Counted from the first letter of the stretch, positions 8,898-33,660 are shown. The stretch is 64,000 bases of DNA from Vicinamibacterales bacterium (GCA_965263195.1 OZ253664.1:3253045-3317044); one strand, 5' to 3'. Numbers and translations: made by a program. Notes: a model not told the origin generated them from the sequence alone.

Positions 8898-9845
8898 ATG
8901 AACCACCGAATTCTCGCAGCGTTGTTTGCCGTGGCGGCGGTCGTGGTACTGATGCCGGTGAGCGTTGCAGGCCAGGCGCCGCCCACGCCGTGGGGCGACC
9001 CCGACCTGCAGGGACTCTGGACGAACTCCACGACGACGCCGTTGGAACGTCCGGACGACGTGTCGGCAGGAGATGTGCTTTCCAACGAGGAACGCGCGGC
9101 CCGGGACGCACAGGCGGACGTCACCCGCGAGGCGCGCGGCATCGAGTCGGGTACTGGCGAAACCGGCTCCTACAACAACTTCTGGGTCGAGCGGGGCGTC
9201 AGGATGGCGCGCGCGTCGCTCATCATCGACCCGCCGGACGGCAGGCTGCCGCTGACGCCAGCGGAGGCGACGCGCCGTGCGGGCCGCGAATCGTATCGGA
9301 ACCAGGCACCGGCCGGTCCCGAGGACCGCAGCGTGTTCGAGCGGTGCATCTCGCGCGGGTTGCCGGGCGCCATGATGCCCGGCTTCTACAACCACAACTA
9401 TCAGATCTTCCAGGTGCCGGGATACGTCGTGATCCTCATCGAGATGATCCACGATGCCCGCATCATTCCCCTGGACGGACGTCCGCACGTCGACCCGCAG
9501 ATTCGGCAGTGGCTCGGGGATTCCCGCGGCCGCTGGGAGGGCGACACGCTGGTGGTTGAGACCACCAATTTCACTCCGATGAACCAGCGGGCGCTTTCCG
9601 TCTTCGGCGGCAACGAGACCATGCAGCTGGTGGAACGGTTCACCCGCATCGACGAGGACAACATCGACTACCAGTACACGGTGACCGATCCGATGGAATA
9701 CACGCGACCGTGGACGGCGTCGACCCCGATGACGAATCTCGACGGCGGGCTGTACGAGTACGCCTGCCACGAGGGGAACTACGGACTGGAGAACATCCTG
9801 GCGGGCGCGCGTGCGCTGGAGCAGGCCGAGGCCGGCAGCCGCTAG
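8898..9845 (+). CDS. Secreted protein of the uncharacterised 'YEYACHEGNYG' family (paralog 3)
   Basis: Signal peptide MNHRILAALFAVAAVVVLMPVSVAGQ. Blocks PDLQGLWTN, ERCISRGLPG, EMIHDARIIPLDGRPH, GRWEGDTLVVETTNF, YEYACHEGNYGLENIL. Confidence 0.8.
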   Translation: MNHRILAALFAVAAVVVLMPVSVAGQAPPTPWGDPDLQGLWTNSTTTPLERPDDVSAGDVLSNEERAARDAQADVTREARGIESGTGETGSYNNFWVERGVRMARASLIIDPPDGRLPLTPAEATRRAGRESYRNQAPAGPEDRSVFERCISRGLPGAMMPGFYNHNYQIFQVPGYVVILIEMIHDARIIPLDGRPHVDPQIRQWLGDSRGRWEGDTLVVETTNFTPMNQRALSVFGGNETMQLVERFTRIDEDNIDYQYTVTDPMEYTRPWTASTPMTNLDGGLYEYACHEGNYGLENILAGARALEQAEAGSR

Positions 9846-9880
9846 CTGGACATCGTGCGAAGTGTGTGAGGAGGGCCGCA

Positions 9881-10312
9881 ATGATGCTGCATCCCGTACG
9901 GAGCCGCTTGCTCGCCCTGTTGGGTCTGGCAGGCTTGTTGGCCGTGGCGCTGCCCGCCGCGGCGCAGACTGAGCGGATGGAAATAGACGAGCTGAAGCAG
10001 CAGCTGGACGCCGGCGCCGAGGTGCTCATGATCGACGTCCGCGAGGACCACGAGGTCGCGAGCGGCTCGATTCCGGGCGCCATCCACATCCCGGTCGGGG
10101 AGCTCGAAGACCGGATGTCCGACATTCCCAAGGACGTGCGCCTCGTCTTCTTTTGAAACGGCGGAGGCCGGGGCTCCCGTGCTGCGGAGCTCTTCAAATC
10201 TCACGGTTACGACGCCGGCGAATTCTGCGCGCTGAACGACTGGAAGGCGAAGGGCTACGAGCTGGGCCAGACGGAGCGGCCGTCCGACGGGCCGATTAGT
10301 CCGGCGCCGTAG
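9881..10312 (+). CDS. Periplasmic single-domain rhodanese with in-frame TGA at the catalytic Cys position (candidate selenocysteine; alternatively a pseudogene)
   Basis: ATG at 9881 after GAGGAGG; signal peptide MMLHPVRSRLLALLGLAGLLAVALPAAAQ. The tracked ORF stops at TGA 10154-10156. The same frame stays open to TAG 10310-10312 and reads ..VRLVFF-[TGA]-NGGGRGSRAAELFKSHGYDAGEFCALNDWKAKGYEL. That is the rhodanese CxxGxR(S) active-site loop plus the normal C-terminal helices. Confidence 0.6.
10170..10193 (+). other. Candidate bacterial SECIS-like hairpin downstream of the in-frame TGA
   Basis: GGGGCUCC (10170-10177) pairs with GGAGCUCU (10186-10193): 8 bp including 2 G-U pairs. The 8-nt loop is CGUGCUGC. 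The loop starts 22 nt after the UGA. Confidence 0.35.
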
Positions 10313-10346
10313 CAGCAACCGCCGCCGCGGCGGCCAGCGTCGACGG

Positions 10347-12329
10347 TTACGGCAGCGCCAGGGCGATCAGCTCGCCCTCGTGGTCGTTGTCGCTGACCGC
10401 CACCACGACGTACTGCCTGCCGTCGTGCAGGTATGTCATCGGTGCGCCGGACGTCCCGGCCGGCAGCTCCGTCTGCCACAGAACGCGGCCGTTCGTCTTG
10501 TCGTAGGCGCGGAACATGCGCCCGCCGCCGTGCGGCGGCACCACCAGCAGCGACGGCGAGCCGTCTCCCAGGAACAGCAGCGTCTTCGTCAGCAGCGGCG
10601 CGGCGCGCCCCGGCGCGCCCAGCCACGGCAGCTCCAGGTCCTGCAGCGCCAGGTCGTCGCGCGGGCCGGGGCCGTTCGGCGTCATCCAGACGTGCTCGCC
10701 CGTGTTGAGATCGATGGCGGTGATGCGGCCCCACGGCGGCTTGACCAGCGGCAGCCCCCGCGGGCCGTCGATGTGCACGTTGCGGTTGCCGCGGATGTAG
10801 CGGAAGTTCGACACCGCCGGGTCCGGCTGCCGCAGCCACACCAGGATGGGCGCCGTGACCGACGGCACGTAGAGCATCTGCGTCTCGGGGTCGTACGCCG
10901 CGCCGTTCCAGTTCGAGCCGCCCACGTAGCTCGGGAGCTGCAGCGTGCCGAGCGTGCCGCCCGGCGACTCGTCGCGCACCGACGGAGGTGTGAACATCGG
11001 CCCCGAGCGGTACTGCCTGAATATCTCCAGCGCCTCGGCCCGCAGCTCCGGCGTGAAGTCGATCAGGTCGTCCTCGGTGATCCCCTGCCGGTCGAACGGC
11101 GCGGGCTTCGTCGGGAACGGCTGCGTCGGCGACAACTTCTCGCCGGGGACGTCGGACGGCGGCACGGGCCGCTCCTCGATCGGCCAGACCGGCTCGCCGG
11201 TGACGCGGTCGAAGACGTACGTGAACGCCTGCTTGCTCACCTGCGCCACCGCCTTGATCGGCCGGCCGTCGACGGTGATGTCGGCCAGGATCGGCGGCGA
11301 GGCGATGTCGTAGTCCCAGACGCCGTGGTGGATGAGCTGGTGGTACCACACCAGCCGTCCCGTGTCGCAGTCGACACAGAGCAGGCTCTCGGCAAACAGG
11401 TTGTCGCCCGGCCGGTGCCCGCCGTACCAGTTGTGGGTCGGCGTGCCGGTGGGGAGGTAGGCGTAGCCGAGCTCCTCGTCGGCGGTCATGACCGACCAGA
11501 CCGTGGCGGCGCCGGTGTACTCCCAGGAGCCGTCCTCCCAGGTCTCGTTGCCCGGCTCTCCCGGTTGCGGCACCGGGTTGAACTGCCACTTCAGCCGGCC
11601 GGTGACCGCGTCGAACCCGCGGATGTAGCCGGGCGCCTGCTCCTTGTTCAGCGGCACGTCGGGGATGGCGACGCCGACGATGACGGTGTCGCGGCAGACC
11701 AGCGGCGGGGCGTTCCACCTGAACTCCTCGAGCCGCGGGATGCCCGACCGCAGGTCGACCTTGCCGCCCTCGCCGAACTCGCCGATCGGGTTGCCCGTTT
11801 TGGCGTCGAGCGCCACCAGCCGCTCGCCGCTCACGACGAAGATGCGCTCGTCGTCGAGCCCCGGGTCGTGCCAGTAGCCGACGCCGCGCGTCGAGCCGCC
11901 GCGCGGCCGGCCGGCGCCGTCGTCCAGCGCGCGGTAGACCCACAGCGTCTCGCCGGTGGCCGGATCAATCGCCGCGGACTGGCCGAGGTTGGTGCTCATG
12001 AACAACCGCCCGCCGACCATCAGCGGCGTCCCGAGCAGCGTGTGGTTGAAGCGCAGGTCCGGGTTGTCGTCGACCAGGTCGTAGTCGACCGACCGCCAGC
12101 GCCAGGCGGTGCGCAGGTCCCCAACGTTCTGCGCGTCGATCTGGTCGAGCGGCGAGTACTTTGCCCCGCGCCCCTGTCCGCCGTACGTGCGCCATTCACC
12201 GTCGCTGCCGGATGGTTGCGCCGCGACCGGCAGGGGACCGGCAAGCAGGATCGCGAGGAGCAGCGCTGCCCAGAATGGATGCTGCGCCGGCCGAACGCGA
12301 CAGGTTGCTTGCCGTGGGCTGTGAGGCAT
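10347..12329 (-). CDS. PQQ-dependent dehydrogenase (8-bladed quinoprotein, glucose/other-substrate clade)
   Basis: ATG at 12329 (MPHSPRQ..) with signal-like FWAALLLAILLAGPLPVAAQ. Quinoprotein blocks WRTYGG..., AIDPATGETLWVY, ALDAKTGNPI, HHGVWDYD, AIDLNTGEHVW. The upstream part of the 850-aa tracked ORF is shadow. Confidence 0.85.
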   Translation of the reverse strand: MPHSPRQATCRVRPAQHPFWAALLLAILLAGPLPVAAQPSGSDGEWRTYGGQGRGAKYSPLDQIDAQNVGDLRTAWRWRSVDYDLVDDNPDLRFNHTLLGTPLMVGGRLFMSTNLGQSAAIDPATGETLWVYRALDDGAGRPRGGSTRGVGYWHDPGLDDERIFVVSGERLVALDAKTGNPIGEFGEGGKVDLRSGIPRLEEFRWNAPPLVCRDTVIVGVAIPDVPLNKEQAPGYIRGFDAVTGRLKWQFNPVPQPGEPGNETWEDGSWEYTGAATVWSVMTADEELGYAYLPTGTPTHNWYGGHRPGDNLFAESLLCVDCDTGRLVWYHQLIHHGVWDYDIASPPILADITVDGRPIKAVAQVSKQAFTYVFDRVTGEPVWPIEERPVPPSDVPGEKLSPTQPFPTKPAPFDRQGITEDDLIDFTPELRAEALEIFRQYRSGPMFTPPSVRDESPGGTLGTLQLPSYVGGSNWNGAAYDPETQMLYVPSVTAPILVWLRQPDPAVSNFRYIRGNRNVHIDGPRGLPLVKPPWGRITAIDLNTGEHVWMTPNGPGPRDDLALQDLELPWLGAPGRAAPLLTKTLLFLGDGSPSLLVVPPHGGGRMFRAYDKTNGRVLWQTELPAGTSGAPMTYLHDGRQYVVVAVSDNDHEGELIALALP

Positions 12330-12368
12330 GCCCGATCTTATCCCCGTAAGGTAAGCTTCATTGTGCGC

Positions 12369-13184
12369 ATGACGTCGCTGTCCGGTTTCCTCCGCATCGT
12401 CGCCTTGACCGTCGCCGGGGTGCTGCTGGCCGCCGCCCCGGCCGCGGCCCAGCGCCCGCTCGCCTCGCTCGACGCCCAGCGCGGCGTCGACACGAATCCG
12501 TACACCTCGGAAGAGGATGTCGCGGTGGGAGAGGAGTTGTTCGCCTCGCGCTGCGTCACTTGCCACGGCGCCGACGGCCGCGGCGACCGCGGGCCCGACC
12601 TGACGCGCGAGGTGTTCCGCCACGGCAACAGCGACCGCGCGATCTTCATGAACATCCTGAGCGGCATCCCGAATACCGGCATGCCGTCGGTGCGCCTGTC
12701 GGACAAGGAGATGTGGCAGATCGTGGCCTTCGTCCGCTCGCTGCGCGCCCCGGCGGAAATGGCCGAGACTGGCGACCCGGACGCCGGCCGGGAGCTGTAC
12801 GCGCGCCATGACTGCGGGCGCTGCCACTTCGTCAACGGCGAGGGCGGGCGGCTGGGGCCGGAGCTGAGCACCATCGGCTGGAGTCGCCCTCCGGTCCACC
12901 TGCGCGCGTCCCTCGTCGATCCGGGCGGCGACATCGAGGACGACTACCGCCAGGTGCGTGTCGCGGGCGCCGGCGGCGCCCCGACGGTGGGCGTGCTGCT
13001 CAACGAGGACGCCTATTCGATCCAGCTGCTCGACATGGCCGGCCGGCTGCGCTCCTTCATGAAGTCCGACGTCGAGGATCTCGAGCGCCCGCAGGCGTCG
13101 CTGATGCCCAGCTTCGCGGGACGCCTCGACGATCCGGAGTTGGACGATCTGGTTGCGTACCTCTCTTCCCTGCGACGGAGATGA
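12369..13184 (+). CDS. Periplasmic c-type cytochrome with two CxxCH motifs
   Basis: ATG at 12369 with a signal peptide. Heme sites CVTCH and CGRCH. The stop overlaps the start of the next gene (ATGA at 13181-13184). Confidence 0.8.
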   Translation: MTSLSGFLRIVALTVAGVLLAAAPAAAQRPLASLDAQRGVDTNPYTSEEDVAVGEELFASRCVTCHGADGRGDRGPDLTREVFRHGNSDRAIFMNILSGIPNTGMPSVRLSDKEMWQIVAFVRSLRAPAEMAETGDPDAGRELYARHDCGRCHFVNGEGGRLGPELSTIGWSRPPVHLRASLVDPGGDIEDDYRQVRVAGAGGAPTVGVLLNEDAYSIQLLDMAGRLRSFMKSDVEDLERPQASLMPSFAGRLDDPELDDLVAYLSSLRRR

Positions 13185-14815
13185 ATCCGAATATGCGAAT
13201 CCAATCCCGCGGGCGAACCGTCTACCTGGCGCTGGTCGCCGTGCTCGCCGCCGCGGCGGTGCTCGGCGCCCAGGGCGGCGGTGTGACGTCCGACCAACTG
13301 GTGCGCGCCGGCGACGATCCCGCCAACTGGATCACGTACTCCGGGCAGTACCACGCTCAGCGCTTCAGCCGCCTCGTGCAGATCGACCGCTCCAACGTCG
13401 GCCGCCTCGAGCTCGCCTGGGTGCGGCAGCTACCCGTCCTCGGTCAGGTGCAGACCTCGCCGCTCGTGGTGGACGGCATCATGTACCTCACCACGCCCGA
13501 GAACGAGGTGTATGCGCTCGACGCCGCCACCGGCAACGAATTCTGGAGCTACCAGCACGACCTCTCCGAGACGCTGACGCTGTGCTGCAGCAAGCAGAGC
13601 CGCGGCGTCGGCATCCTCGGCGACCGGCTCTATCTGACCACGATGGACGCGCACCTGATCGCGCTCGACGCCGCCACCGGCACCGAGCTGTGGGACCGCA
13701 AGATCGCCGACCACCTGGCCGGCTACAGCATGACCGCGGCGCCGCTCGTGGTGAAGGACATGATCGTCACCGGCACCGGCGGCGGCGAGTACGGCATCCG
13801 CGGCTGGGTCGACGCCTACGACGCCGAGACGGGCGAGCGCCGCTGGCGGGCCTACACCGTCCCCGGGCCGGGCGAGCCGGGCAACGACACCTGGGAAGGC
13901 GATTCCTGGAAGACCGGCGGCGCGTCGACCTGGATGACCGGGTCGTACGACCCCGACCTCAACCTTATCTACTGGGGCGTCGGCAACCCCGGCCCCGACT
14001 GGAACGGCGCCGCGCGCGAGGGCGACAACCTCTACTCGGACAGCGTCATCGCGATCGACGCCGACAGCGGCGAGATCAAGTGGCACTTCCAGTTCACGCC
14101 GCACGACATCCACGACTGGGACGCCTGCCAGGTCCCGGTGCTGGTCGACATGGTGATCGGCGGGCGCGAGCGCAAGCTGATGCTGTTCGCCAACCGCAAC
14201 GGCTTCTTCTACGTGCTCGACCGCGAGACCGGCCGCTTCGTGCAGGGGCGGGAATATGCCATGCAGACCTGGGCGCAGGGCCTCGACGACAGCGGGCGCC
14301 CGATCCGCGTGCCCGACATGGAGCCGACGCCGGAGGGCCGGCTGGTGTTTCCCGACGTGAACGGCGCCTCCAACTGGTGGTCGCCCTCCTACAGCCCCGA
14401 CACCGAGCTGTTCTACACGATGGCGTATGACGGCGGGGCGCTGTACTACTCCGCGGAATCCGAGTACGTGCCGGGTCAGTTGTTCCTCGGCGGCAGCCAC
14501 GTGCCGCAGACGCCGCGCGACACCAACGCGAGCGCCGTCCGCGCGATCGACCCGCGGACCGCCCGCGTCGTCTGGGAGCACCGCGTGCAGCCCAAGTCGA
14601 TGTCGGGGGTGATGACCACGGCCGGCGGCCTGGTGTTCGCCGGCACCGTCACCGGCAACTTCATCGCGCTGGACGCCGAAACCGGCGACGACCTGTGGCA
14701 CGCGCGCCTCGGCGGCAACGTGATTGCCGCGCCGATCACCTACCTCGTGAACGGCCGCCAACAGGTGACCATTGCAGCCGGCCAGGCCATCTTCACCTTC
14801 GCGCTCGGAGACTGA
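13181..14815 (+). CDS. PQQ-dependent alcohol dehydrogenase, methanol/ethanol family (XoxF/PedH-like)
   Basis: Signal peptide. Vicinal Cys pair LTLCCSKQ, W-motif propeller repeats, ALDAATG.., PHDIHDWDA (catalytic Asp with a second Asp at +2). Confidence 0.9.
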
Positions 14816-15971: not shown

Positions 15972-16062
15972 GGAGAGGTACCGAAGTGGTCGTAACGGGG
16001 GCGCCTCGAAAGCGTCTTGTCGGGAAACCGGCACGTGGGTTCGAATCCCACCCTCTCCGCCA
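15972..16062 (+). tRNA. tRNA-Ser (anticodon CGA), CCA encoded
   Basis: Acceptor stem GGAGAGG/CCTCTCC. Anticodon arm GGCGC-CTCGAAA-GCGTC. Long variable arm. T-arm GTGGG-TTCGAAT-CCCAC. Discriminator G followed by CCA. Confidence 0.9.
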
Positions 16063-16591
16063 CTTGCATCCGCGCCCGAGGCCGGCAGGCCGGAGCGCGA
16101 TCGGATGAAGAATCTGATTAAGGTGGCGGGTTCGGCGTTCAGCGTCCGAACCCATCCGGCCCTGACGGCTTCCGATCAATCCAGGTGGCGTGAGCCAGAC
16201 AGCGCGGAGTGAACGCACACCGCGCCTACCTACCGGGCGCCGTCGGTCATCAGTCAAGCACTGTGGCGTAGGATGGCTATCCGTCGAGCCATCTCATAAG
16301 ATCTGCATCCACACCAACTCTCGTGCTCAACGGAAAAACATACCGCCATAAGTTACCAATGGGCGTGTAGCGACAGGTGAAACCTCCATGAAGATCTACG
16401 ACGCACTTAACAGTATCGGTAAACACGACCTCGTGCTGCCGGAGTTTCAGCGTGAATACGTATGGTCCAAAGAGCAGGCCAAGCAACTCCTTGTGTCCCT
16501 CATCAAGAGTTACCCCGTAGGCGGCATGTTGATTTGGAAAACGGACTCTCCGCCAGAACTCAAGAATATCAACGAGCTACCGGACAAACTA

Positions 16592-17425
16592 GAACCTATC
16601 TCAAAATCGTTTAAACAATATCAGCAGGGATGCGAGCTGCACAAAGCCCAGGAAGTTGTTCGGATAGTACTCCCAGCGCGTCACAATACGGCGCTGCCAT
16701 TGGAGCCAGGCAAAAAAGCGCTCGACCTTCCACCGCCGCGCGTAGCGACGTAAGGGCCGACCGTCCTGTGTCTTGCGCCGCTTCCGATTCTTGCGATGCG
16801 GCGCGATCATCTCGACACCCTCGACCTTCAGTTCAGCGTCCAAGGGGTCACTGTCGTACGCTTTGTCGCCAATCAGGTGCTCCGGCGTCGCCTCAATCAT
16901 GTAGAATTCGAAGCTCAACTGCACCAACGTGACTTCATGATGGTTCGCCGCGTGAGTGCTGACCGAGAGCGGCAGCCCCTCCCGGTCCACGATCCCCATG
17001 ATTTTCACGCCTTTTCCGCGCTTCGTCGGGCCGACCTCCGCGCCACCCCCCTTCGCCGACGAGAACATCGCGTCAATGAAACTCTCCGATTCGTCCAGGC
17101 CGCCCCGCTCGCGGAGCGTATTGGCCACATCCACCAGGATATCCCGGAGCACCTCGTGGCGGCACCACGTCTGAAAGCGGCGATGCACGGTCTTGTAGTT
17201 CGAATAACACTGCGGCAACATATGCCATTGTGCGCCCGTGTTCAGAATCCACAAGACCGCCTCCAGCACCCGACGGGTCGGAATAGGTTTGCGACCCGCT
17301 CGCCCCGGAACACGACGCTCCTCAGGAAAGTGCTCCCGAATCCGTTCCCATTGCTCGTCGGTCAACTTCACCATCACAATAAGATTAACTTAATTCGACC
17401 CCGATCTCAATTTTGAGATAGGTTC
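16592..17425. mobile_element. IS5-family insertion sequence (about 0.83 kb)
   Basis: Perfect 16-bp terminal inverted repeats GAACCTATCTCAAAAT (16592-16607 and reverse complement at 17410-17425). Flanked by TA within a CTAG target (16589-16592 and 17425-17428). Confidence 0.85.
16601..17377 (-). CDS. IS5-family DDE transposase
   Basis: The 258-aa product carries LTDEQWERI, RKPIPTRRVLEAVLWILNTGAQWHMLP, HRRFQTW, DKAYDSD and WKVERFFAWL, typical of IS5/IS427-group transposases. Confidence 0.9.
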   Translation of the reverse strand: MMVKLTDEQWERIREHFPEERRVPGRAGRKPIPTRRVLEAVLWILNTGAQWHMLPQCYSNYKTVHRRFQTWCRHEVLRDILVDVANTLRERGGLDESESFIDAMFSSAKGGGAEVGPTKRGKGVKIMGIVDREGLPLSVSTHAANHHEVTLVQLSFEFYMIEATPEHLIGDKAYDSDPLDAELKVEGVEMIAPHRKNRKRRKTQDGRPLRRYARRWKVERFFAWLQWQRRIVTRWEYYPNNFLGFVQLASLLILFKRF

Positions 17426-19624
17426 TAGGCACCGTCATGGTGCTGCTAGACGGGCAGCAACGCCTAACAACGCTGCATATGCTCCTGACCGGCAAGGTCC
17501 CTGCATTTTACAATGAAGCCGAAATAGAGAACGATCCACGAGACCTTTATTTCAATCTGGAAACAACGAATCTCCAGTATTACCAGCGATCGAAGATGAA
17601 GGACGATCCACTCTGGCAGGGTGTGGTCAAGTGCTTCGACGAAAAATCGATCAACCTGTTTGATATTGTGCAGGCGAAACAGCTTGACGTACAGGCGGCA
17701 TTCGATCTGGCGGATCAGTTGAATACGAATCTTACCACACTTCGGACCGTCCGTCATGCGGACCTACCAGAGCAGATCGTCCCGTCATCCGCGAGCCTTA
17801 CCGATGCGATTGACATTTTCGATCGAGTAAATAGCCAAGGCACGAAGCTGACGGATGCAGAGCTTGCCCTAACGCACGTAACGGCCAACTGGCCGCAGGC
17901 ACGGCGAGTCCTGAAGGCGAAGATTGGTAAGTGTGCGGAGCGCCGCTTCGACTTCACACTTACCTTTATGACCAGAGCTCTAACCACAACGGTAACCCAT
18001 CGAGCATTGTATGAGACGATTCACCCGGTCGACGGTAGCCGCCTCAAGGACGGATGGCGGCGACTGGACAAGCTTCTTGACTACCTGACAACACTCTTGC
18101 CCCAAGAGGCATTCATTCATTCAACGATGGACCTCAATACAACGAACGCGCTGATCCCACTGATCGCCTATTTGGAGGGTCAAGGAGGCAAGTTTCCGAG
18201 TGCTACGTCTGTGCGGCATGCGGTTCATTGGCTGTATGCGGCCTTGATGTGGTCACGATACACCAGCCAGACGGACCAACGGCTCGAGACGGACGTCACG
18301 CTCGTCGCTCGGGAGGCGGAACCGTGGGGCGCGCTTTGCACACATATCGTCGACCAGAGAGGAAGAATCGATGTCGAAGCGGGGGACTTCGCGGGTCGTG
18401 GCACGCCGCACCCGCTTTATCGCGCGGCGTTTATCTTGGCAAAGGCTCACGGGGCGACGGATTGGTTCAATGGCCTGCCATTGTCCCATACGCATGGCGC
18501 TGCGTACGGGTTGCACAGTCATCATATCTTCCCGCAATCACTCCTATACAAGAACGGTCTCAACCAACAGGACTACACGCACCGACAACTTGTGAACGAG
18601 ATAGCGAACCGCGCCTACTTGACGGCTGAAAGCAACATGGGACTTTCCAACAAGGAGCCGGCTGACTATCTGCCCGAAGTGGAGGAGAAATTTCCTGGCG
18701 CGTTGACAAAACAGTTCATCCCAATGGATGCACAACTGTGGAAAGTGGAACGGTACAGGGAGTTCTTGGAGGTTAGGCGTGGGCTGATTGCAAGGAAACT
18801 AAATGAATTCATGCAGAGTCTTGTCGTTGAACCGGAGACGTTACATCACAGACCGGTTGGACAGCTGATAGCACTCGGTGAGAGTTTTACCTTGGAGTTC
18901 AAGAGCAGTCTGCAGTTCGACATGGTCCGTGGCAAGCAGAACACGGCGTTGCGAGGATCCATTCTCAAGACGATCGCGGCATTTTTGAATTCAGAAGGAG
19001 GTACACTGGTGATCGGCGTAGAGGATTTGGGGACCGTGTGCGGTATTGATGCCGACCTTCACCTTGTCGGAAATTCTCGAGATAAGTTCGAGCAACTCGT
19101 TAGTTCTCTGGTAGTTCAATACCTCGGTGTCGGAATCGTACCATATTGCAGGTTTCGATTTGAGGAGGTCGAAGGCCGAACGGTGTACGTCGTTGATGTT
19201 GAGCCTTCCGCCGAGCCAGTTTTTGCAAAGTCTGAGAAAGGCTCAGTCTTTCATGTTCGCATCAGCAATACAACTCGAGCCCTTGATACTGCGGAGGCGC
19301 TACGTTATATCGAATCTCGAGGAATGGGTGCATAATGGATGGTGTCGTTCTTGAGGTGGGCGAGGCGTTCACGGGTGTGGTCGGTGGCGGGCAGCCGCCG
19401 TGTGTCCCGGGATGCGTCGTGTTAGGCAGATCATGGACTGGCCTTGCGCGGGATCCCTAGGGGGGGCAGGATGACCGGAGGGGGGCCAATACGGACTATC
19501 GTCCGAACGGCGCCGCCAGGGTGAGGCCGGCGGCTCCGGCGGCAGCCTTGAGGAGCGCCCGACGCGGGATGGAACTGCCGTATTGTCCCTTTCTTACGCG
19601 CCCGTCCATAGTCGAGACATCTCC

Positions 19625-20416
19625 TCAGTTAATTGTCGTGGTCTCAATGCCTTCGAGGCACACCCTCCACCGATCGGTCGGCCAACCATTGCTCTGCGCC
19701 GCAATGTTTCGGTCGATGTAGAACACGTACAGGTCCCGCACGCGTCCGGCCCTGGTGATCCTGCCGCACTCGGCTATCGCCTCGGCTGAAAGCGTCGCCT
19801 CGCCGTCGTATTCGTTCCACAAGGATGTGTTCTGCAACATGTCCGACACCAGGAGGAACGAATCGATGTCTTCATTTCGCTCAACGAGCGAGGCCATTGT
19901 CTCGACAATCGGCGATACGGTCGCTTCTTCCCGGTCCCGTAGTTCATCGAGTATCCCTCTGAGCCTGTTCAGGAAGGTCGCAAACTCGATTTCGACGACT
20001 CGAGGATTCTCATAGAGGAGATCGGCCATCTCCCCCTGCTTGGGTATGCACCACGAGCGGCCGGATTGGCTCGGATCCTGGTGTTCCGATTCGGGCAGTC
20101 CGTAGATGGACAGCTTTTGCAGGAACAACGTGTCTCTGGTCCACCCTTCAATTCTCTCGAACGCCCTCGCTCCGTCCTCCCCCGATATCTCGTTGGAGGT
20201 GTCAACGAGTATTACCGTGTGACCGGGTATCCGTATTCCTTCGCGGAGTTGCGCTCTTGTACCAGTCGGACAATACCCGTTGGCCTCACGCACCCGAAGT
20301 TGATCGGCGTAGTTCAAGTTGTACCCTACAACGACTACCAGCGCGCTCAGCGCCACGATGACCAGGACGAGTAGTACAACCTTGACGGGGTGGGGCGACT
20401 CGCTGCCGGAGCTCAT
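19625..20416 (-). CDS. Hypothetical N-terminally membrane-anchored protein with degenerate vWA-like motifs (operon gene 4)
   Basis: TM helix VKVVLLVLVIVALSALVVVVG, then VILVDTSNE ... SPIVETM ... FLLVSDM. The start ATG overlaps the upstream stop (ATGA 20413-20416). Confidence 0.65.
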   Translation of the reverse strand: MSSGSESPHPVKVVLLVLVIVALSALVVVVGYNLNYADQLRVREANGYCPTGTRAQLREGIRIPGHTVILVDTSNEISGEDGARAFERIEGWTRDTLFLQKLSIYGLPESEHQDPSQSGRSWCIPKQGEMADLLYENPRVVEIEFATFLNRLRGILDELRDREEATVSPIVETMASLVERNEDIDSFLLVSDMLQNTSLWNEYDGEATLSAEAIAECGRITRAGRVRDLYVFYIDRNIAAQSNGWPTDRWRVCLEGIETTTIN

Positions 20417-21822
20417 CCGGTGCCGGGGCCTCCTCTCCCGGTGGCCGGCCCGAGCACGACGCTTTCATATCGTTCCCACGAATCGGCAACCCTGGCGCAC
20501 TCCCGCTCAACGCTGTCGAAGAACTCCGCCTTCCCCGAATCCCACCACGCGTTTACGATCCTATCCGCCTCGTCCAGGATGCTCCAATCCGAAGGCGTGG
20601 CTGGAAAAGACCAGTCGACGCTGGCGCTCTCTCTGTGCACATTCAACATGCCCCGGTCAATCTTCTCGGCGTTATGCTTGTTGTGCGCTATAATGAAATC
20701 TGATTCTGCGAGATCCAGATAGGACCTTTGTTCCCAGCCCTCCTTGACATCCTCTAGAACGTTCCTCGCACGTCGCCTCTTTTTGTCGAGTTCCTCGATC
20801 CATCCTGCAACGTCGGCCCTGACACCCTTCGTGAGTTTCGTGCGGTAGCGCTCGGACAGGGTTTTGTAGTCTGCCTTGATATCCTTCCATTCGCGGTCCA
20901 GAAGCCTTTCCGCCTTTGCGCGCTTGATCCCGAATCGCACAAAGGTGAATCCCTTGTAGAATCCCACGGCACAGAGCGCCAAACCCAGGACGAGAAAGAG
21001 CAAAGACTCAAGTTCCCACGTCACCGGATTGAACGAGATGCCCGCAGCGAGTTCTCGTACCGATGCCAGGTTGATTTCGGTTGCCTGCAGCGTCTGACGT
21101 TCTCTTTCGTCGATAAGCCTTGCGAAAGCCTCTCGGTGACGTCCCACGATGAGATTCAGAGCCGTAGCGGACAGGAGTAACAGGCCGCAACCTGATAGAA
21201 GCGCCGCCCCTGAGTTCGAGTGGCGACGCACACCGGACAGCAGCAGGCCACCTCCTGCGCCGAGGGCGCCGACGTTGATGGCGGACACGAGTACTGCCGT
21301 GATGAAGGCACCAACCAGTCCGGTCGACAGGGCGCGTGTCAACAGGGTGACATTCGCCATGGCCTCGCCAACGATGCAGACCACGAGCATGGCTATGAGC
21401 TTCAACCACTGGTACCCCGTTGGTGCATCCGTATCGCTCGGCAGCGGCAACTCCGTCCGCGCATTCCGATGCTGCGAGCTACGGTGCTCGAGGACTGTGA
21501 GTTCGTTTTCGGCGTCGATCGTTACCTGCTGAGGCCCCTTTGAGCGTTTGAAATCCCAGCCGTTCAGCGGTTGGCCGATTTCCTTGGCGACGGTATCGAG
21601 GGTGCGGTTGACCAAATCCCGATAGGCCAGTCCGAGAGAGGTGAGAAGCTTGTGGTGGGCCGGCTTCCAGTCTCCGTTGGCGTGGAGGGCGATCTCGGCC
21701 GGGTCGAGGCCCAGCGACCTGGGATCGGTGGGCCAGGAGTTCTTCGAGGTCGGAACCGATGCGGCGGGTTCAGGCAACCTGCTCGACGGTTCCGAAGCAG
21801 TTTGGCTCGTGCCCTCAGTCAT
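20413..21822 (-). CDS. Hypothetical polytopic membrane protein, 469 aa (operon gene 3)
   Basis: About four hydrophobic helices (WLKLIAMLVVCIVGEAMANVTLL, GLVGAFITAVLVSAINVGALG, ALLSGCGLLLLSATALNLIVG, LLFLVLGLALCAVGFYKGF). A charged helical segment lies before the last helix, and there are long soluble termini. No family recognised. Confidence 0.65.
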   Translation of the reverse strand: MTEGTSQTASEPSSRLPEPAASVPTSKNSWPTDPRSLGLDPAEIALHANGDWKPAHHKLLTSLGLAYRDLVNRTLDTVAKEIGQPLNGWDFKRSKGPQQVTIDAENELTVLEHRSSQHRNARTELPLPSDTDAPTGYQWLKLIAMLVVCIVGEAMANVTLLTRALSTGLVGAFITAVLVSAINVGALGAGGGLLLSGVRRHSNSGAALLSGCGLLLLSATALNLIVGRHREAFARLIDERERQTLQATEINLASVRELAAGISFNPVTWELESLLFLVLGLALCAVGFYKGFTFVRFGIKRAKAERLLDREWKDIKADYKTLSERYRTKLTKGVRADVAGWIEELDKKRRRARNVLEDVKEGWEQRSYLDLAESDFIIAHNKHNAEKIDRGMLNVHRESASVDWSFPATPSDWSILDEADRIVNAWWDSGKAEFFDSVERECARVADSWERYESVVLGPATGRGGPGTG

Positions 21823-22298
21823 CAGAAACCCCGTCCTCCGGTTTGATCCTGCAATGTAGCGGCGAATCCGGAGTGTACGGGAAGTCGAAGGCGGTCGTCA
21901 ACGGAGATGGACAGCGCTGCTATTCTCCCTCGTCGCGCCTTGCCAGCGGGGCACCTCGCGACTCTCGATGCTTTCGCGGGGATTCTCCACGGGCTCCTAG
22001 CTGCTATGGCCCCGACGGTAGCGGCCAATTCTGCTTCAAGTCCTTGACGTCGGTCACGCAACGCATCCCTGTTCCGAATCAGCGACTGCCGTACGCGATC
22101 AGCTACGTGCCAGAGAGCGGTGGACGTGGAATGGATCGGTGGGCGAAGCAGGTTGGCAAACGGCGACACAACGACCCAGAGCAGACCGACTGATGCGATC
22201 CATGCAAGTGCACGAAGGCAGTTCTGCCACAGGCTGCTAACCTTGAGTCCAGAAAGGAGCCGGATGCTGACATCCGCCGTGGCATGGGAAATTGACAT
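21822..22298 (-). CDS. Possible small membrane protein (operon gene 2), uncertain
   Basis: ATG at 22298. One hydrophobic helix ALAWIASVGLLWVVVSPFANLL. Its TGA overlaps the ATG of the next gene (TGATG at 21820-21824). It overlaps the 3' end of 22237..23343 by 62 nt, so it may be an artefact. Confidence 0.35.
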   Translation of the reverse strand: MSISHATADVSIRLLSGLKVSSLWQNCLRALAWIASVGLLWVVVSPFANLLRPPIHSTSTALWHVADRVRQSLIRNRDALRDRRQGLEAELAATVGAIAARSPWRIPAKASRVARCPAGKARRGRIAALSISVDDRLRLPVHSGFAATLQDQTGGRGF

Positions 22299-23343
22299 CC
22301 CCGGTGCGAACGTTAGCAAGATGCCATTTCAGGAGGATGTACGCGGCTCGTGCATTACCATACGCACATTCGACTTCGGCGATTCTCCGGTTGGATAGAT
22401 GGCATCCAGGATGTGCCAGGTTGCGAAGGTCCCGCATCATGTCGAGGAGCGGGCGAGAGCGAAGCGTTCCCTCCGCCACTTTAAAATCTGGTAGCCATCC
22501 TGCCTCGCCAGCCACCACCGCGAGCTCATGCAAGCTCCAGCGTTTTGGGTTGGCGCGGTTCGGTCGCTCGCGGGCGGGCAAACGGTTACGCGCGTGTAGA
22601 GCGTCGTCGCGGCGGTTCAAGCAAGCAAACAAGAGGGCAGCCTCAATGGCGGAACCGATCATGACGGCCGCTGCGTGATACGCTCCGCCTTCCGCGCAGA
22701 TTTTGGCCTCAGATTCGAACTGTTTTTGGAGAACGCTCAGTCGTTCCAACTCTGGGACATCATCAAAGGCAAGGCGGCGGCCCTGCTCTCTACGCGCATC
22801 GTACGATTTCCGGTCCACGCGGTAGAGATCGGCGATGTCGTCAAAACCGTATTCACGCAGCGCCTCTTCGAACTTCCTGTCCAGAACATGCGAGTGTTGT
22901 TCGGTCAACTCCTCCCAATCATCCGGCCCTTGCCCGATGGGCCAGAACTCGTCGTCCTTGAGCCGTTCTCGCTGGCGTATGGCGTCCATGCGCGCCGCTA
23001 TGCCCGCGAGGTCGGCATTGTACAAGCCGTCTAGACAGCGCCGCTCATGAACACGTTCGATGGCGGACACCCGCAGTAGGAAGCAATAGGAGGGCGCGAA
23101 CACACTGGCGGCTTCCGCCGACCCAGCTGTGTCGATCCAGGCTCGCGTGGCGGTCTCGATCTCGGACAAGTCGAGCTTCAAGGCGTTCTGTAGTTGGTTG
23201 TCAGTGATACGGCAAAGCTCGTGCGCGTGTTCCTGAAAGTGATACCAGGCTCTGCAACTAGCAAGGATGGCATTTAGGGCTTGCGACACTGGTTCTGAGA
23301 GCCGAGTGCCACCGGTTCGACGGGTCTTTTTCGAATCATTCAT
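22237..23343 (-). CDS. Hypothetical protein with C-terminal HEPN-like helical domain (operon gene 1)
   Basis: ATG at 23343 (MNDSKKTRR..). The C-terminal region GGAYHAAAVMIGSAIEAALLFA ... LLDMMRDLRNLAHPG fits the HEPN helix pattern with an Rx4-6H-type motif. Confidence 0.6.
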   Translation of the reverse strand: MNDSKKTRRTGGTRLSEPVSQALNAILASCRAWYHFQEHAHELCRITDNQLQNALKLDLSEIETATRAWIDTAGSAEAASVFAPSYCFLLRVSAIERVHERRCLDGLYNADLAGIAARMDAIRQRERLKDDEFWPIGQGPDDWEELTEQHSHVLDRKFEEALREYGFDDIADLYRVDRKSYDARREQGRRLAFDDVPELERLSVLQKQFESEAKICAEGGAYHAAAVMIGSAIEAALLFACLNRRDDALHARNRLPARERPNRANPKRWSLHELAVVAGEAGWLPDFKVAEGTLRSRPLLDMMRDLRNLAHPGCHLSNRRIAEVECAYGNARAAYILLKWHLANVRTGDVNFPCHGGCQHPAPFWTQG

Positions 23344-23434
23344 TGTCGATGTGTCTCTCGTGGCGCGCCGAAGGTGGTCGCTGATGGCGTGGGGCCGACG
23401 GACCACATCTGCGCGGACACCCGCGTGGAGTCAA

Positions 23435-23509
23435 GACGACTACCACGCAGACTTCGCCGCGAAAATCAAAGACCAGATCGAGCAGGGCGTGGTGCCGTGG
23501 CATAGGAAA
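23435..23509 (+). pseudogene. Remnant of an ArdC-like (DUF1738 N-terminal domain) antirestriction gene
   Basis: The frame reads DDYHADFAAKIKDQIEQGVVPWHRK. This resembles the ArdC_N opening (..y..v...ii..le.G..PW.k). There is no plausible start and no continuation. Confidence 0.3.
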
Positions 23510-23535
23510 TCATCACCTGATCTTCGATCATTCGA

Positions 23536-24051
23536 TCATTCGCTCAACATTGCCCGCAGGTCCTTCATGAGTAAGAACAGGTGATAGGGATCCGTGGGGC
23601 TCGGCTCGAACTCCAAGGCTTCGTACCAGCCCCGCGCCTCGTCGTCCTTGGCATGGACGAGAAGTGCCCGAATACCGGCGATGTCGGCGGCTGCGGCGGT
23701 TCTGAGCAGTGCGTCCTTGACGAGCGCCTTGCCCAGGCCTCGTCCTTGCCAGGTCAGGTCGACCGCGAGACGGGCAAGGAGCATCACCGGGATCGGGTGC
23801 CGGGCCAGCCCCTTGCCGACCCGGAGAGGTGCGTCGGTATGTTCGACGGCTCCCGCCGCAAGGCTGTAGTAGGCGAGCACCGTCAATCCCCGGCAGGCGA
23901 CATAGGTCCGGGCGCTGTCGGCCTTCTGGTTCGCCAGCGCGAAACGCTTCAGAAAGCGATCGAGTGGCTCTTTCCCGCACTCGAAGGAATCGACATCGTG
24001 CGTTGCGTCGAGCTTCTCGACAGGAGACAACCCCTCCTGTTCCGGCGTCAC
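23536..24051 (-). CDS. GNAT-family acetyltransferase toxin (TacT/KacT-like)
   Basis: GTG at 24051 overlaps the antitoxin stop (GTGA). Motifs FECGKEPLDRFLKR, LLARLAVD..WQGRGLGKALV, ALLVHAKDDEARGWYEALEF. Confidence 0.8.
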   Translation of the reverse strand: MTPEQEGLSPVEKLDATHDVDSFECGKEPLDRFLKRFALANQKADSARTYVACRGLTVLAYYSLAAGAVEHTDAPLRVGKGLARHPIPVMLLARLAVDLTWQGRGLGKALVKDALLRTAAAADIAGIRALLVHAKDDEARGWYEALEFEPSPTDPYHLFLLMKDLRAMLSE

Positions 24052-24323
24052 TCCAGCACGCTCTTCTCCGCAAGCAATCGAGTCAAGCGGGGCTTGTGGG
24101 CGACCGGGCGGTCCAGGATGGCCTGGAAGGCCTGCCACTGGCGATCGTCGAGGCGGAAAATCCGCCGGTCGACCAGGGCGTCCTCAGCGGCGTTGATCCC
24201 TGCCTCGAGCAGAAACTCCGTGACGTTCTTGTGTGACGAGGCCGCAGCCCGCTGAAGCAACGCCTTCATGTTCGGGGTCGTCCGAACCTCAATGCGTTCC
24301 GACTTGTTTTCGGCGATGGCCAT
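24048..24323 (-). CDS. DUF1778 (TacA-like) antitoxin
   Basis: ATG at 24323 with GGAGG upstream. The 91-aa product reads MAIAENKSERIEVRTTPNMKALLQRAAASSHKNVTEFLLEAG..., the RHH-type DUF1778 pattern. Confidence 0.8.
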   Translation of the reverse strand: MAIAENKSERIEVRTTPNMKALLQRAAASSHKNVTEFLLEAGINAAEDALVDRRIFRLDDRQWQAFQAILDRPVAHKPRLTRLLAEKSVLE

Positions 24324-24549
24324 GAATGTTCCTCCGGTTGGATCCACCGACATTCTGTCATACGGATAGTGTACGGACAAGAACGCATCGACAGGCACGC
24401 TACCGTGCCTCACATCCTCCTGTGAGGGCCCGCTCGTTCCGCGTCTGGGATGAGGTGACCTCTGCCCACTGAGCCCGGGCGATGTCGGCGAGCGCGGAAG
24501 AGACTCGGCCCAAGTTCGCAAACTTGACAGTGCCGCTGGCCGACATATC

Positions 24550-25506
24550 ATGGCCGCCGTGGACGGAACGGTTGCCATTACCGATCACGGCTGGTACGAA
24601 TGCCTGCTGGCGCAGGACCGCCTCGACGAGATCAACTTCTGGACGCCGTCTGCCCACTGGGCCTTTCGAGGTGAGATCGGAGCGCCCTTCTTTTTCAAGC
24701 TGAAGGGACGCTACGACCACGCGATCTGTGGGTTCGCCTATTTCGCTCGCTACACTCGACTGCCGGACTGGCTCGCATGGGAGACCTTCGGCATCAAGAA
24801 TGGTTGCCAGACCCTCGACGCGATGCGCGACCGGATCGGTGGCATTCGAGCTCGGATCGACTACCGCGCCGCCTCGCCGTCGAATCAGATCGGCTGCATT
24901 CTCCTGTCCCAGCCGACGTTCTTTCCTCAAGACGCGTGGATTCAGGGGCCCAGGGATTGGCCACCCACGAACATGCGACCCAAACGGTACGACCTGACCG
25001 TGGGAGAAGGCCTGCGCATCTGGGAGGAATGTCGTGCCCAAGCCGCGACCGTTGGCGTGACTGCATCAATCGGTCGGCTGCCCCTGGTTCTTGAAGCGGC
25101 ACCGCGCTACGGGGCGCCCCAACTGGTTCAGCCGCGCCTCGGCCAGGGTATCTTCCGTGTGGCAGTCATGGATGCCTATTCCCGAGCCTGCGCCGTGACG
25201 CACGAGCATTCCCTGCCGGCGCTGGAAGCGTCCCATCTCCAGCCATATGCGAAGAACGGCCCACATGAAGTCCGCAACGGGGTTCTCCTCAGGGCTGACC
25301 TGCACCGACTGTTCGATCAGGGCTACGTCACCGTCACGCCAGAGTACCGAGTCGAAGTGAGTCCGCGGCTGAAGCTCGATTACGATAACGGCCACAGCTA
25401 CTACCCCCTGCACGGTTCCCGCGTGTCCCTGCCCAAAGCGTCCGAGGACGCGCCGGGCCCGGACTACCTGCGCTGGCACAACGAGCAGGTGTACCGAGCC
25501 TCCTGA
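24550..25506 (+). CDS. HNH nuclease (HNH_2-type) with N-terminal PUA/EVE-like domain; candidate modification-dependent restriction enzyme
   Basis: C-terminal CAVT....LEASHLQPY...GPHEVRNGVLLRADLHRLFDQGYVTV. N-terminal VAITDHGWYECL...EINFWTPS...PFFFKLKG..ICGFAYF. Confidence 0.7.
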   Translation: MAAVDGTVAITDHGWYECLLAQDRLDEINFWTPSAHWAFRGEIGAPFFFKLKGRYDHAICGFAYFARYTRLPDWLAWETFGIKNGCQTLDAMRDRIGGIRARIDYRAASPSNQIGCILLSQPTFFPQDAWIQGPRDWPPTNMRPKRYDLTVGEGLRIWEECRAQAATVGVTASIGRLPLVLEAAPRYGAPQLVQPRLGQGIFRVAVMDAYSRACAVTHEHSLPALEASHLQPYAKNGPHEVRNGVLLRADLHRLFDQGYVTVTPEYRVEVSPRLKLDYDNGHSYYPLHGSRVSLPKASEDAPGPDYLRWHNEQVYRAS

Positions 25507-25520
25507 TCGACAGGCCGACG

Positions 25521-26462
25521 ATGCGGTACTGGTGGGTGAATCAGAATCAGACGTATCGGGCCGAGGTGCGCGGCAGCTTCATGTGGTCGCCGAAGCGGAA
25601 CGCGAACGGTGCGCGCAATCAGTTCTACCAGAACATGCGATCCGTGGCGCCCGGTGACGTCATCTTTTCGTTCTGCGACACTCGCATCAAGGCGATCGGC
25701 GTCGTCACGGGCCCCGCCGAGACCGGCCCCAAGCCGGACTTCGGTTCAGTGGGCGTGAACTGGTCCAAGGAGGGCTGGTTTGTTCCCGTCGACTACTGTG
25801 CGTTGGAACACCGAGTTCGCCCGAAGGACCACATCGGCATCCTCCGGCCGTTTCTGCCTGCGAAGTACTCACCACTCCAATCGAACGGTGACGGCCTCCA
25901 GTCTGTGTATCTCGCCGAGCTACCTGAACCACTGGCGCAAGCGCTCATCGGTCTCATCGGCCAGGCGTTCTTGGACGCCTTCGCGACGATCGCTGACTAC
26001 CAGACGGCCTTTGATTCGTCCGAGCCAGACCAGAACATCATCGAGCGCGGCATCGTTGGTCCTACCTTCAGAGATCAAGTTGTGAAGTCGCGGCGTGGTC
26101 AAGGTGTCTACAGGGCGAATGTTCTGCTCCGGGAGTCGTCGTGCCGGGTCACTCGGGTGGACGATTCCAGACATCTCAAGGCCAGCCACATCAAGCCGTG
26201 GCGTGACGCGACCGATGCCGAACGCCTCGATGGGTCGAACGGGCTGCTGCTATCGCCGCATATCGATCACTTGTTCGACGGAGGCTACATCACGTTCTCG
26301 ACCGATCAGTCGCTCGTCATCGTTCCAGAGGTCCGAGACAGTTTGCTCGACGCCTGGGGAATCGACGCTGGCGTCCGTGTGGGCGATTTTTCCCGGGAGC
26401 AGAACGCCTACCTCGACTATCACCGCGCCAACGTGTTCAAGGACGCCCTCATGAAGACGTAA
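25521..26462 (+). CDS. Second HNH nuclease (HNH_2-type) with a different N-terminal PUA/EVE-like domain
   Basis: N-terminal MRYWWVNQNQTYRAEVRGSFMWSPK...APGDVIFSF..TRIKAIGVV. C-terminal CRVT....LKASHIKPW......NGLLLSPHIDHLFDGGYITF. Starts 14 nt after the previous gene. Confidence 0.7.
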   Translation: MRYWWVNQNQTYRAEVRGSFMWSPKRNANGARNQFYQNMRSVAPGDVIFSFCDTRIKAIGVVTGPAETGPKPDFGSVGVNWSKEGWFVPVDYCALEHRVRPKDHIGILRPFLPAKYSPLQSNGDGLQSVYLAELPEPLAQALIGLIGQAFLDAFATIADYQTAFDSSEPDQNIIERGIVGPTFRDQVVKSRRGQGVYRANVLLRESSCRVTRVDDSRHLKASHIKPWRDATDAERLDGSNGLLLSPHIDHLFDGGYITFSTDQSLVIVPEVRDSLLDAWGIDAGVRVGDFSREQNAYLDYHRANVFKDALMKT

Positions 26463-26489
26463 CGCCGACGCGGTTCCACCGGGGCCATA

Positions 26490-27158: not shown

Positions 27159-27259
27159 TAGTCCGCTCGACATGACTGGAACCTTCAGACTTCGGCTCGG
27201 AAGGCGGGACATCGGGAACTGGAGTGCCGGCACTGGAATACGGAGCGGAGAACCAAGAA

Positions 27260-28262: not shown

Positions 28263-28387
28263 GGTCGTCCCCCCGGCGGCGACCGCCCGCTGAACGCGGG
28301 CATCGATCGGCCCCAGAGTATCACTCCGGTGGCCCACGACAAGTCAGCCCAACGGCGGACGTTCAGCCGCGGCACGATGCCCGATCG

Positions 28388-29227: not shown

Positions 29228-29345
29228 CTGGGGACCTCTTCGCGGGTGGGTATCAAGAGAGGTTCGTCTTCGACACGGTGTCGCGTGGACAAGATACCTC
29301 GTTCCGAAGATGGAGCCTCCAGGAAACCCGGTACTGTTCACAGCC

Positions 29346-32827: not shown

Positions 32828-32943
32828 GCTCTCTGTTGACAGTGCCTCGAGCCCGGCTCCCGACGGCGGCAGGTTCGCGTAGACGCGCTACACGGCAGGC
32901 GGGTAAAATTCCCGGATACGATCTTCTTACCGGGGGAGGCACG

Positions 32944-33657: not shown

Positions 33658-33660
33658 CCC

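Follow-up and report, generated by a model that had tools for sequence, protein, structure and literature searches.

An exported rhodanese of Vicinamibacterales with probable selenocysteine at the catalytic position

We analyzed a 64-kb stretch of DNA from a Vicinamibacterales bacterium (GCA_965263195.1, OZ253664.1:3253045-3317044; hereafter the window), in which the gene at 9881-10312 runs from ATG to TAG with a TGA in frame at 10154-10156 and 51 open codons after it. This is most probably an intact gene for an exported single-domain rhodanese in which selenocysteine (Sec, U) replaces the catalytic Cys, a reading to which we give a probability of roughly 0.88. The read-through product would be a protein of 143 amino acids (aa) with Sec at residue 92: MMLHPVRSRLLALLGLAGLLAVALPAAAQTERMEIDELKQQLDAGAEVLMIDVREDHEVASGSIPGAIHIPVGELEDRMSDIPKDVRLVFF-U-NGGGRGSRAAELFKSHGYDAGEFCALNDWKAKGYELGQTERPSDGPISPAP. 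An earlier note on this DNA had claimed this frame, the TGA, the 51 further codons and the TAG at 10310-10312, and every coordinate agreed with our reading. The coordinates of these and other features are collected in Table 1.

The Pfam model PF00581 (Rhodanese) matched residues 36-111 of the read-through product across the TGA, with Cys placed there (54.5 bits against a cut-off of 22.2; E = 1.7e-14). In alignments, the TGA fell exactly on the catalytic Cys of the solved structures 6mxv (FYCGGGFRS) and 4ocg (IIFCQVGLRG), and on the corresponding Cys of the Cys-containing homologues described below. The active-site loop U-N-G-G-G-R fits the pattern C-x-x-G-x-R/T with Sec in place of Cys. Both the complete single-domain rhodanese and the catalytic position of the TGA had been claimed in the earlier note, and both claims were borne out. 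The open frame after the TGA, taken alone, is not beyond chance: in this window of 69% G+C, at least 51 stop-free codons followed 429 of the 1444 TGAs (30%), counted in any frame. The read-through is significant because homology crosses the TGA, because the G+C content at third codon positions (GC3) is of coding type downstream, and, decisively, because of the comparative data. The codon-position G+C of the segment 9965-10153 was 0.74/0.36/0.88, and GC3 was 0.82 downstream of the TGA versus 0.88 upstream, that is, of coding type on both sides. Many ordinary genes of the window terminate at TGA, and the genetic code is therefore standard.

A genome scan with one genome per species yielded 80 loci. 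Loci L001-L037 were almost all from metagenome-assembled genomes (MAGs) of Vicinamibacterales or Vicinamibacteria, with complete Vicinamibacterales chromosomes carrying the TGA gene among them (e.g., OY760136.1 and OZ220728.1), and L038-L071 were from Terriglobia, other Acidobacteriota and one Binatia MAG. The window protein was 93-95% identical to those of L001, L002 and L087, which places its source in Vicinamibacterales. At the catalytic column, TGA was present in 69 of the 70 genes from Acidobacteriota genomes (window included) and TGC in one; neither TAA nor TAG occurred at this column among the 70. The picture was similar in contigs from metagenomes of soil, sediment and marine origin (27/28 TGA, 1/28 TGC), and about 96% of family members keep UGA. 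The lowest pairwise protein identity among the Sec forms was 31%, and TGA has therefore been retained across deep divergence. In every TGA gene the frame stays open past the TGA, and the protein is conserved up to a common end.

Among the homologues found by protein search, dozens were 82-95 aa long, with 67-97% identity to the window protein. All short homologues whose sequences were read (16/16) finish with ...RLVFF and have therefore been truncated at this very codon. Others, of 130-149 aa and about 50% identity, are full-length; they carry Cys at the TGA column and have the C-terminal half in common, including the motifs xRAAELF, FCALxDWKAK and RPxxGPIxP. Cys in the UGA column was found in proteins P0021, P0023, P0026, P0029, P0030, P0042, P0045, P0066 and P0109 and at loci L068 and L091. 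Three Cys forms were 85% identical to a Sec form, and the Cys homologues were nested among the TGA forms. Judged from the codon at this column, the family is overwhelmingly Sec-encoding across Acidobacteriota (Vicinamibacterales, Terriglobia), with Cys forms nested within it.

The ratio of nonsynonymous to synonymous change (pN/pS) was 0.28-0.35 downstream of the TGA versus 0.19-0.27 upstream; the downstream value indicates that this part is translated and under purifying selection. The alignment with Cys orthologues, which had been proposed as a check, confirmed the TGA/Cys column and the conserved C-terminal half. Orthologues that simply stop at this codon, named beforehand as one case against Sec, were not what we found: TGA counts of 69/70 and 27/28 go together with a downstream frame under selection. 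In a control scan of the window and the 80 loci (1.3 Mb with flanks), the rhodanese gene was the sole consistent TGA-to-Cys column; the other in-frame TGAs aligned to Arg or Gly and lay in wrong-frame or antisense open reading frames (ORFs). A search of the window for further selenoprotein genes turned up only adjacent genes or antisense frames.

A hairpin lies within the coding sequence just 3' of the UGA. Its arms (10170-10177 and 10186-10193) form a stem of 7-8 bp around the 8-nucleotide (nt) loop CGUGCUGC at 10178-10185. The spacing from the UGA to the loop is 21 nt, the loop beginning at the 22nd nt, so that the hairpin is present as the earlier note had described it. The program bSECISearch reportedly looks for a stem-loop right after the UGA with a small, G-containing apical loop about 16-37 nt from it, and the window hairpin lies within this loop distance. 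Thermodynamic tests, by dinucleotide shuffles and, for 73 genes of the family (66 Sec forms and 7 Cys forms), by synonymous-codon shuffles, gave no signal after the UGA; any 50 nt at about 70% G+C folds well. They were replaced by synonymous-site entropy and by a comparison of Sec and Cys forms for a hairpin at a fixed position.

Two different hairpin types, one per clade, were found at the same site. In clade 1 (39 distinct sequences, window included), the stem codons +6 AGC, +7 UCC, +10 GCG, +11 GAG and +12 CUC had a synonymous entropy of 0-0.17, the loop codons +8 CGN and +9 GCN had 1.0 and 1.57, and the gene's remaining codons of four- and six-fold degeneracy had a median of 1.12 (indicative Mann-Whitney p = 0.0012). 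The pairing third-position G was kept where the residues change (R to L, A to V, A to K), and G-C to A-U double changes occurred in L029 and L088. Over 29 distinct sequences with the window-type hairpin, 90.6% of cells were paired, versus 32-59% when the hairpin was slid along the sequence. RNAalifold returned another, weak structure for clade 1, caused by a one-nucleotide register shift in CGA-GCC variants, and the pairs of the hairpin described above were therefore counted directly. In 36/36 Phe-bearing relatives the UGA was preceded by TTT, although the rest of the gene prefers TTC for Phe; in clade 1 it was always followed by AAC.

In clade 2 (26 sequences, Terriglobia type), the UGA is followed by GGG CGC GCG NNG CGY GCY. 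The codons GGG, CGC and GCG are frozen, and the Y positions of the 3' arm vary between C and U only, opposite G (indicative p = 0.0034). RNAalifold gave a 7-bp stem for this clade, with 7/7 pairs intact in 26/26 sequences. In both clades, synonymous divergence was lowered across the first 13 codons past the UGA. All 79 distinct TGA forms had a hairpin at 17-21 nt 3' of the UGA, which was weak or absent in most Cys forms; its free energy in the fixed window was -9.1 to -14.5 kcal/mol in the 79 Sec forms versus -2.5 to -12.8 kcal/mol in 8 Cys forms (indicative p = 5.5e-5). In the Cys form L068 the peptide is the same (GGRASRAA), but its codons AGA GCC UCG CGA do not pair. These results provide good, though indirect, evidence that the hairpin is a bacterial selenocysteine insertion sequence (SECIS), and they strengthen the earlier suggestion of SECIS compatibility: the structure occurs in every distinct Sec form, its synonymous sites are frozen, and in most Cys forms it is weak or absent.

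Some members of the family depart from the common pattern. Two Sec-rhodanese paralogues occur together in some Acidobacteriota: L042 and L047 on contig CBDBKE010000004.1, L052 and L054 in one MAG, and L063 and L070 in another. The frame of L070 has an extra stop just upstream of LLIDVRED, and this copy may start later or be N-terminally truncated. A divergent Sec clade on metagenome contigs (L110, L112) has the loop U-T-A/S-G-F-L without arginine and S-S-C in place of E-F-C before the second Cys; the nucleotides of the clade-1 hairpin are kept there despite the changed encoded residues. The Cys form at L085:1001-1423 (protein P0045), 85% identical to the Sec form L096, retains the clade-1 hairpin (AGC UCC ... 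GCG GAG CUC, -12.8 kcal/mol), and its active-site loop, C-N-G-G-E-L-S-S-W, has lost both arginines. This gene may carry a fossil SECIS after a recent switch from Sec to Cys, with changed function.

The N-terminus of the window protein has the parts of a signal peptide: a basic n-region (MMLHPVRSR), a 15-residue hydrophobic core (LLALLGLAGLLAVAL) and a c-region (PAAA/Q). Neither a twin-arginine motif nor a lipobox was present in it. This N-terminal pattern recurs in homologues, and the AlphaFold2 model of P0021 shows disorder over the matching segment (predicted local distance difference test score [pLDDT] <50). The protein should be exported by the general secretion (Sec) pathway and mature, by cleavage at a predicted site, to a periplasmic protein of about 115 aa.

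The model of P0021, a Cys form 54% identical to the window protein, had a mean pLDDT of 82.6, with the domain, including the C-terminal tail, above 90. The top matches listed by Foldseek were rhodanese-type domains, with 3gk5 at a template modeling (TM) score of 0.86 and a root-mean-square deviation of 1.7 Å. At the level of a predicted structure, the alpha/beta rhodanese fold is confirmed for this Cys form. The solved rhodaneses 3gk5 (Thermoplasma), 3foj/3iwh (Staphylococcus) and 6mxv (Francisella) share the fold, with TM scores up to that value, and differ in having Cys at the active site. Among solved structures, 6mxv was the best sequence match (E = 1.5e-21); it has a Gly-Gly turn after strand beta5 where the family has an invariant Cys, and in the alignment of the first 6mxv domain, Cys116 of the window protein stands opposite the first Gly of that turn.

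This second Cys was present in 99/99 family members examined, Sec and Cys forms alike. In the P0021 model, the catalytic Cys94 (window Sec92) directly follows strand 89-93, and Cys118 (window Cys116) directly follows strand 113-117. In the rhodanese fold, the strands preceding the catalytic Cys and the second Cys are neighbors in the parallel sheet. Because both residues follow neighboring strands, we infer from the model that Sec92 and Cys116 could be close enough for a selenenylsulfide. A conserved C-terminal tail at 10277-10309 (TERPSDGPISPAP in the window, RPxxGxIxP family-wide) extends beyond the Pfam match and has pLDDT >90 in P0021.

These features suggest the following course. On reaching the UGA, the ribosome would not terminate; the mRNA hairpin, acting as a bacterial SECIS, would recruit SelB with Sec-tRNA(Sec), and Sec92 would be inserted. 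The signal peptide would direct the unfolded chain via the Sec translocon to the periplasm. There, Sec92, which opens the U-N-G-G-G-R cradle loop, would act as the nucleophile, taking sulfane sulfur (or selenium) from a thiosulfate- or persulfide-type donor. A Se-S intermediate would form and the sulfur would be passed to an acceptor, as homology with the Cys of PspE and GlpE suggests. More speculatively, Cys116 at the end of the neighboring strand may resolve or protect the selenol via a selenenylsulfide.

One of the closest known proteins is E. coli PspE, a periplasmic single-domain thiosulfate:cyanide sulfurtransferase with a double-displacement persulfide mechanism (PMC2593051). Like the predicted window protein, PspE combines a signal peptide with one small rhodanese domain, is periplasmic and has its nucleophile at the opening of a six-residue loop; unlike it, PspE has a single Cys and no Sec, and the window protein is longer, with the C-terminal tail and the second Cys. 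By this analogy, double-displacement transfer of sulfane sulfur via a Se-S intermediate would serve as the working mechanism. The window protein was rejected as a PspE orthologue, with scores of 23.1 against a cut-off of 102 and 20.3 against 126.3 for NCBIfam NF007627/TIGR02981, and the architecture alone is common to the two. A different function is conceivable, though we consider it rather unlikely: the family would be a periplasmic redox module and no plain sulfurtransferase, in which a Sec92/Cys116 selenenylsulfide cycle serves over-oxidation-resistant handling of persulfides, peroxides or disulfides on a rhodanese scaffold.

Several observations weigh against a selenoprotein, or against its hairpin as a SECIS. 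The search with SECIS covariance models, which the earlier note had proposed, gave no match: no Rfam SECIS family was found up to E = 10 in 9800-10400 and none at the gathering score in the whole window. The energy of the window hairpin is not exceptional (z = 0.06 versus dinucleotide shuffles), and the 51 nt after the UGA are no more stable than synonymous-codon shuffles (mean z 0.07 in 66 Sec genes). Covariation in the window-type hairpin is nearly nil, consisting of the two G-C to A-U double changes only, and the pairing potential of clade 1 follows partly from the conserved peptide Ser-Ser...Ala-Glu-Leu. The sequences compared are phylogenetically related, so that the p-values given above do not come from independent samples and are indicative only. 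Conservation of the gene neighborhood amounts to synteny among close relatives only and so gives no pointer to a substrate or role. Finally, we searched for the Sec machinery with ARAGORN and with tblastn over the window and 166 loci, using E. coli SelA, SelB and SelD queries, which were validated at 621-920 bits against the NCBIfam models. No tRNA-Sec, selA, selB or selD was found in the 64-kb window, as had been stated before, or in about 1.8 Mb of related flanks, the sole tblastn match being a weak P-loop one.

That no Sec machinery was found in the window and the related flanks searched also speaks for another decoding of the UGA. The codon might be recoded as Cys or another residue by a suppressor tRNA, for which the candidates are a tRNA(Sec)-like SelC* tRNA(Cys) that would use SelB and the hairpin, and an allo-tRNA of acidobacterial type bearing the anticodon UCA. 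There are precedents: allo-tRNAs of Acidobacteria can act as nonsense suppressors, and SelC* tRNA(Cys) species imitate tRNA(Sec) and may read UGA as Cys (Mukai et al., PMC5389517). SelC* was, however, reported in anaerobic Firmicutes, Thermodesulfobacteria, Nitrospirae and Proteobacteria, not in Acidobacteria (PMC5389517), and no allo-tRNA or tRNA(UCA) was found in the loci. Moreover, for the insertion of Cys a UGA with a hairpin would be no better than TGC, yet nearly all of the family keeps UGA, and a UGA at a catalytic redox Cys together with Cys orthologues is the standard signature of a selenoprotein. We regard recoding by anything other than Sec as highly improbable.

Still less credible is a real stop at the TGA, with the gene being a pseudogene, the product of a sequencing or assembly error or the source of a 91-aa fragment, and the downstream frame being due to chance. 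The frequency of chance frames in the window (30%) would allow this, and every public gene call ends at the TGA. Against it, about 95 genome and metagenome sequences, independent of one another and obtained with different assemblies and technologies, share this TGA. Purifying selection acts on the downstream frame, which has in-frame ends. A 91-aa product would have neither the catalytic residue nor the final strand and helices of the fold; a decaying gene would be expected to yield TAA or TAG codons and frameshifts, and none was seen. Two products, with a stop at the UGA and the 51 codons either translated by re-initiation or conserved through an opposite-strand gene, could draw on the long minus-strand ORFs that overlap the gene (9842-10318 and 9640-10197), but ORFs of that length are commonplace in 69% G+C DNA, neither a conserved start codon nor a conserved ribosome-binding site lies past the UGA, the codon-position G+C fits the plus-strand frame on either side of it, and the two halves form one rhodanese domain that is a single uninterrupted ORF in the Cys forms. 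The comparative data leave practically no room for a pseudogene, a sequencing error or two separate products, and Sec insertion at the UGA is the reading that we retain.

Sec-containing rhodaneses as such are not new. Three such sequences were reported from the Sargasso Sea (PMC1088965); in the Olavius symbionts, eight "rhodanese-related sulfurtransferase" genes were listed in addition to separate COG2897 and COG0607 sulfurtransferase entries (PMC1976440); and a 2026 review of selenoproteomes distinguished rhodanese-like forms 1-5, of which two (forms 2 and 4) are PF00581 proteins with UxxG (PMC13188914). The earlier note's statement that such proteins had been predicted from metagenomes was right (PMC1088965, PMC1976440, PMC13188914). 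Sec rhodaneses have been known since 2004-2005, and the window gene adds an acidobacterial, exported member and no new mechanism. Common to the published Sec rhodaneses and the window gene are PF00581 with Sec at the catalytic position, a SECIS-like hairpin right after the UGA and Cys homologues. Forms 2 and 4 of the review have the same UxxG (U-N-G-G in the window), a likeness drawn from the described domain and motif; their representatives are MBM9537886.1 and MCY3690685.1. The earlier reports were mostly from Deltaproteobacteria or marine metagenomes, whereas the window clade is acidobacterial; unlike those proteins, it has a signal peptide, an invariant second Cys and the RPxxGxIxP tail, and is about 96% Sec-encoding.

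No NCBIfam model reached its cut-off for the window protein. NF041203 (rhodanese_LYCAU; form 3, CxU) is likewise a small rhodanese-type selenoprotein family, with a curated model, and was rejected at 39.7 bits against a cut-off of 115: there, a Cys stands two residues ahead of Sec (C-A-U) and Sec does not occupy the canonical catalytic position, and the window motif is F-F-U, with no Cys two residues before. The hairpin can be compared with the SECIS of E. coli fdhF, a SelB-binding hairpin directly 3' of the UGA. Both are stem-loops in coding sequence whose apical loop lies about 20 nt past the UGA, with a G (and a U) near its 5' side, and the clade-1 variant CGA-GCC-UCC would put a bulged C in the stem, a further likeness. 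The candidate SECIS of the window differs in that it has no sequence similarity to that of fdhF and no Rfam match, and in that the hairpins of the family have two unrelated sequences by clade, one with a loop of 8 nt and one with a loop of 3 nt.

The gene is flanked by a cytochrome P450 gene, a gene for an unknown secreted protein of 315 aa and two genes for pyrroloquinoline quinone (PQQ) beta-propeller dehydrogenases (Table 1). The 315-aa protein had no Pfam match; its homologues lie at most 10 kb from the rhodanese gene in many Vicinamibacterales loci, at variable distance and orientation. The neighbor clusters were unrelated (class-III aminotransferase, FG-GAP/ASPIC, alpha/beta hydrolase and tetratricopeptide repeat proteins). 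At two unrelated Cys-form loci (L081, L085), chromate-transporter (PF02417) genes lie a few genes downstream, and L081 also has a resistance-nodulation-division efflux operon and a low-molecular-weight phosphatase/ArsC-type gene nearby. This weakly suggests a connection with oxyanion stress; the pattern comes from the Cys-form loci L081 and L085 and was not seen in the Sec-form loci. Farther along the window, a tRNA-Ser(CGA) gene at 15972-16062 is followed by a stretch from about 16100 to 36000 with a G+C content of 0.56-0.66, versus 0.69-0.70 around it. Given the genes that it carries (Table 1), this stretch looks like a mobile or defense island inserted at the tRNA gene.

Table 1. Coordinates of the candidate selenoprotein gene, its neighbors and genes of the low-G+C stretch, in window positions
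Feature	Position	Strand	Basis or remark
Shine-Dalgarno-like GGAGG	9870..9874	+	6 nt upstream of the start codon; read directly
Start codon (ATG 9881) and predicted Sec-type signal peptide, ~28 codons	9881..9964	+	Translation
Mature rhodanese domain, N-terminal part, ending ...DIPKDVRLVFF	9965..10153	+	Pfam PF00581; codon-position G+C
UGA, probable Sec residue 92, first in active-site loop U-N-G-G-G-R	10154..10156	+	Aligned to the catalytic Cys
Rhodanese C-terminal 51 codons: remainder of active-site loop, helix, strand beta5, helix, tail	10157..10309	+	Protein-level conservation in all relatives
SECIS-like hairpin within the coding sequence	10170..10193	+	Fold; comparative data
TGC, Cys116, second invariant Cys, motif F-C-A/G-L/I	10226..10228	+	In all family members examined
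TAG, true stop	10310..10312	+	Sequence; relatives end at most a few codons away
Cytochrome P450	7516-8781		
315-aa signal-peptide protein	8898-9845		
PQQ dehydrogenase	10347-12461	-	
PQQ dehydrogenase	13181-14815		
DDE transposase	16601-17377	-	Low-G+C stretch
GmrSD_N and Schlafen AlbA_2	17437-19335		Low-G+C stretch
HNH_2	24454-25506		Low-G+C stretch
DDE transposase	30570-32423	-	Low-G+C stretch

Public annotation cuts about 100 copies of the gene, from Acidobacteriota of soil, to proteins of about 90 aa, and some of these bear the name "rhodanese-like domain-containing protein"; NCBI relatives of 86-90 aa with this name include MDE2904525.1 and MCY4598773.1. A search with the C-terminal 51 residues against a collection of 5.8 billion proteins returned one 44-aa fragment only. 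Recognizing the UGA as Sec would correct these truncated annotations, and the group of Sec rhodaneses would gain an acidobacterial, exported clade. Sec use is documented in Acidobacteriota (PMC1794560, PMC12013277), and we found no report of it for Vicinamibacterales in the literature. Each of the 30-odd Vicinamibacterales genomes that we retrieved, complete chromosomes included, carried the Sec-rhodanese gene. The finding would flag Vicinamibacterales and Terriglobia, both abundant in soil, as probable selenium users. On the more novel and rather unlikely reading given above, that of a Sec92/Cys116 redox module, it would also mean a so far unremarked requirement for selenium in the abundant aerobic soil order Vicinamibacterales.

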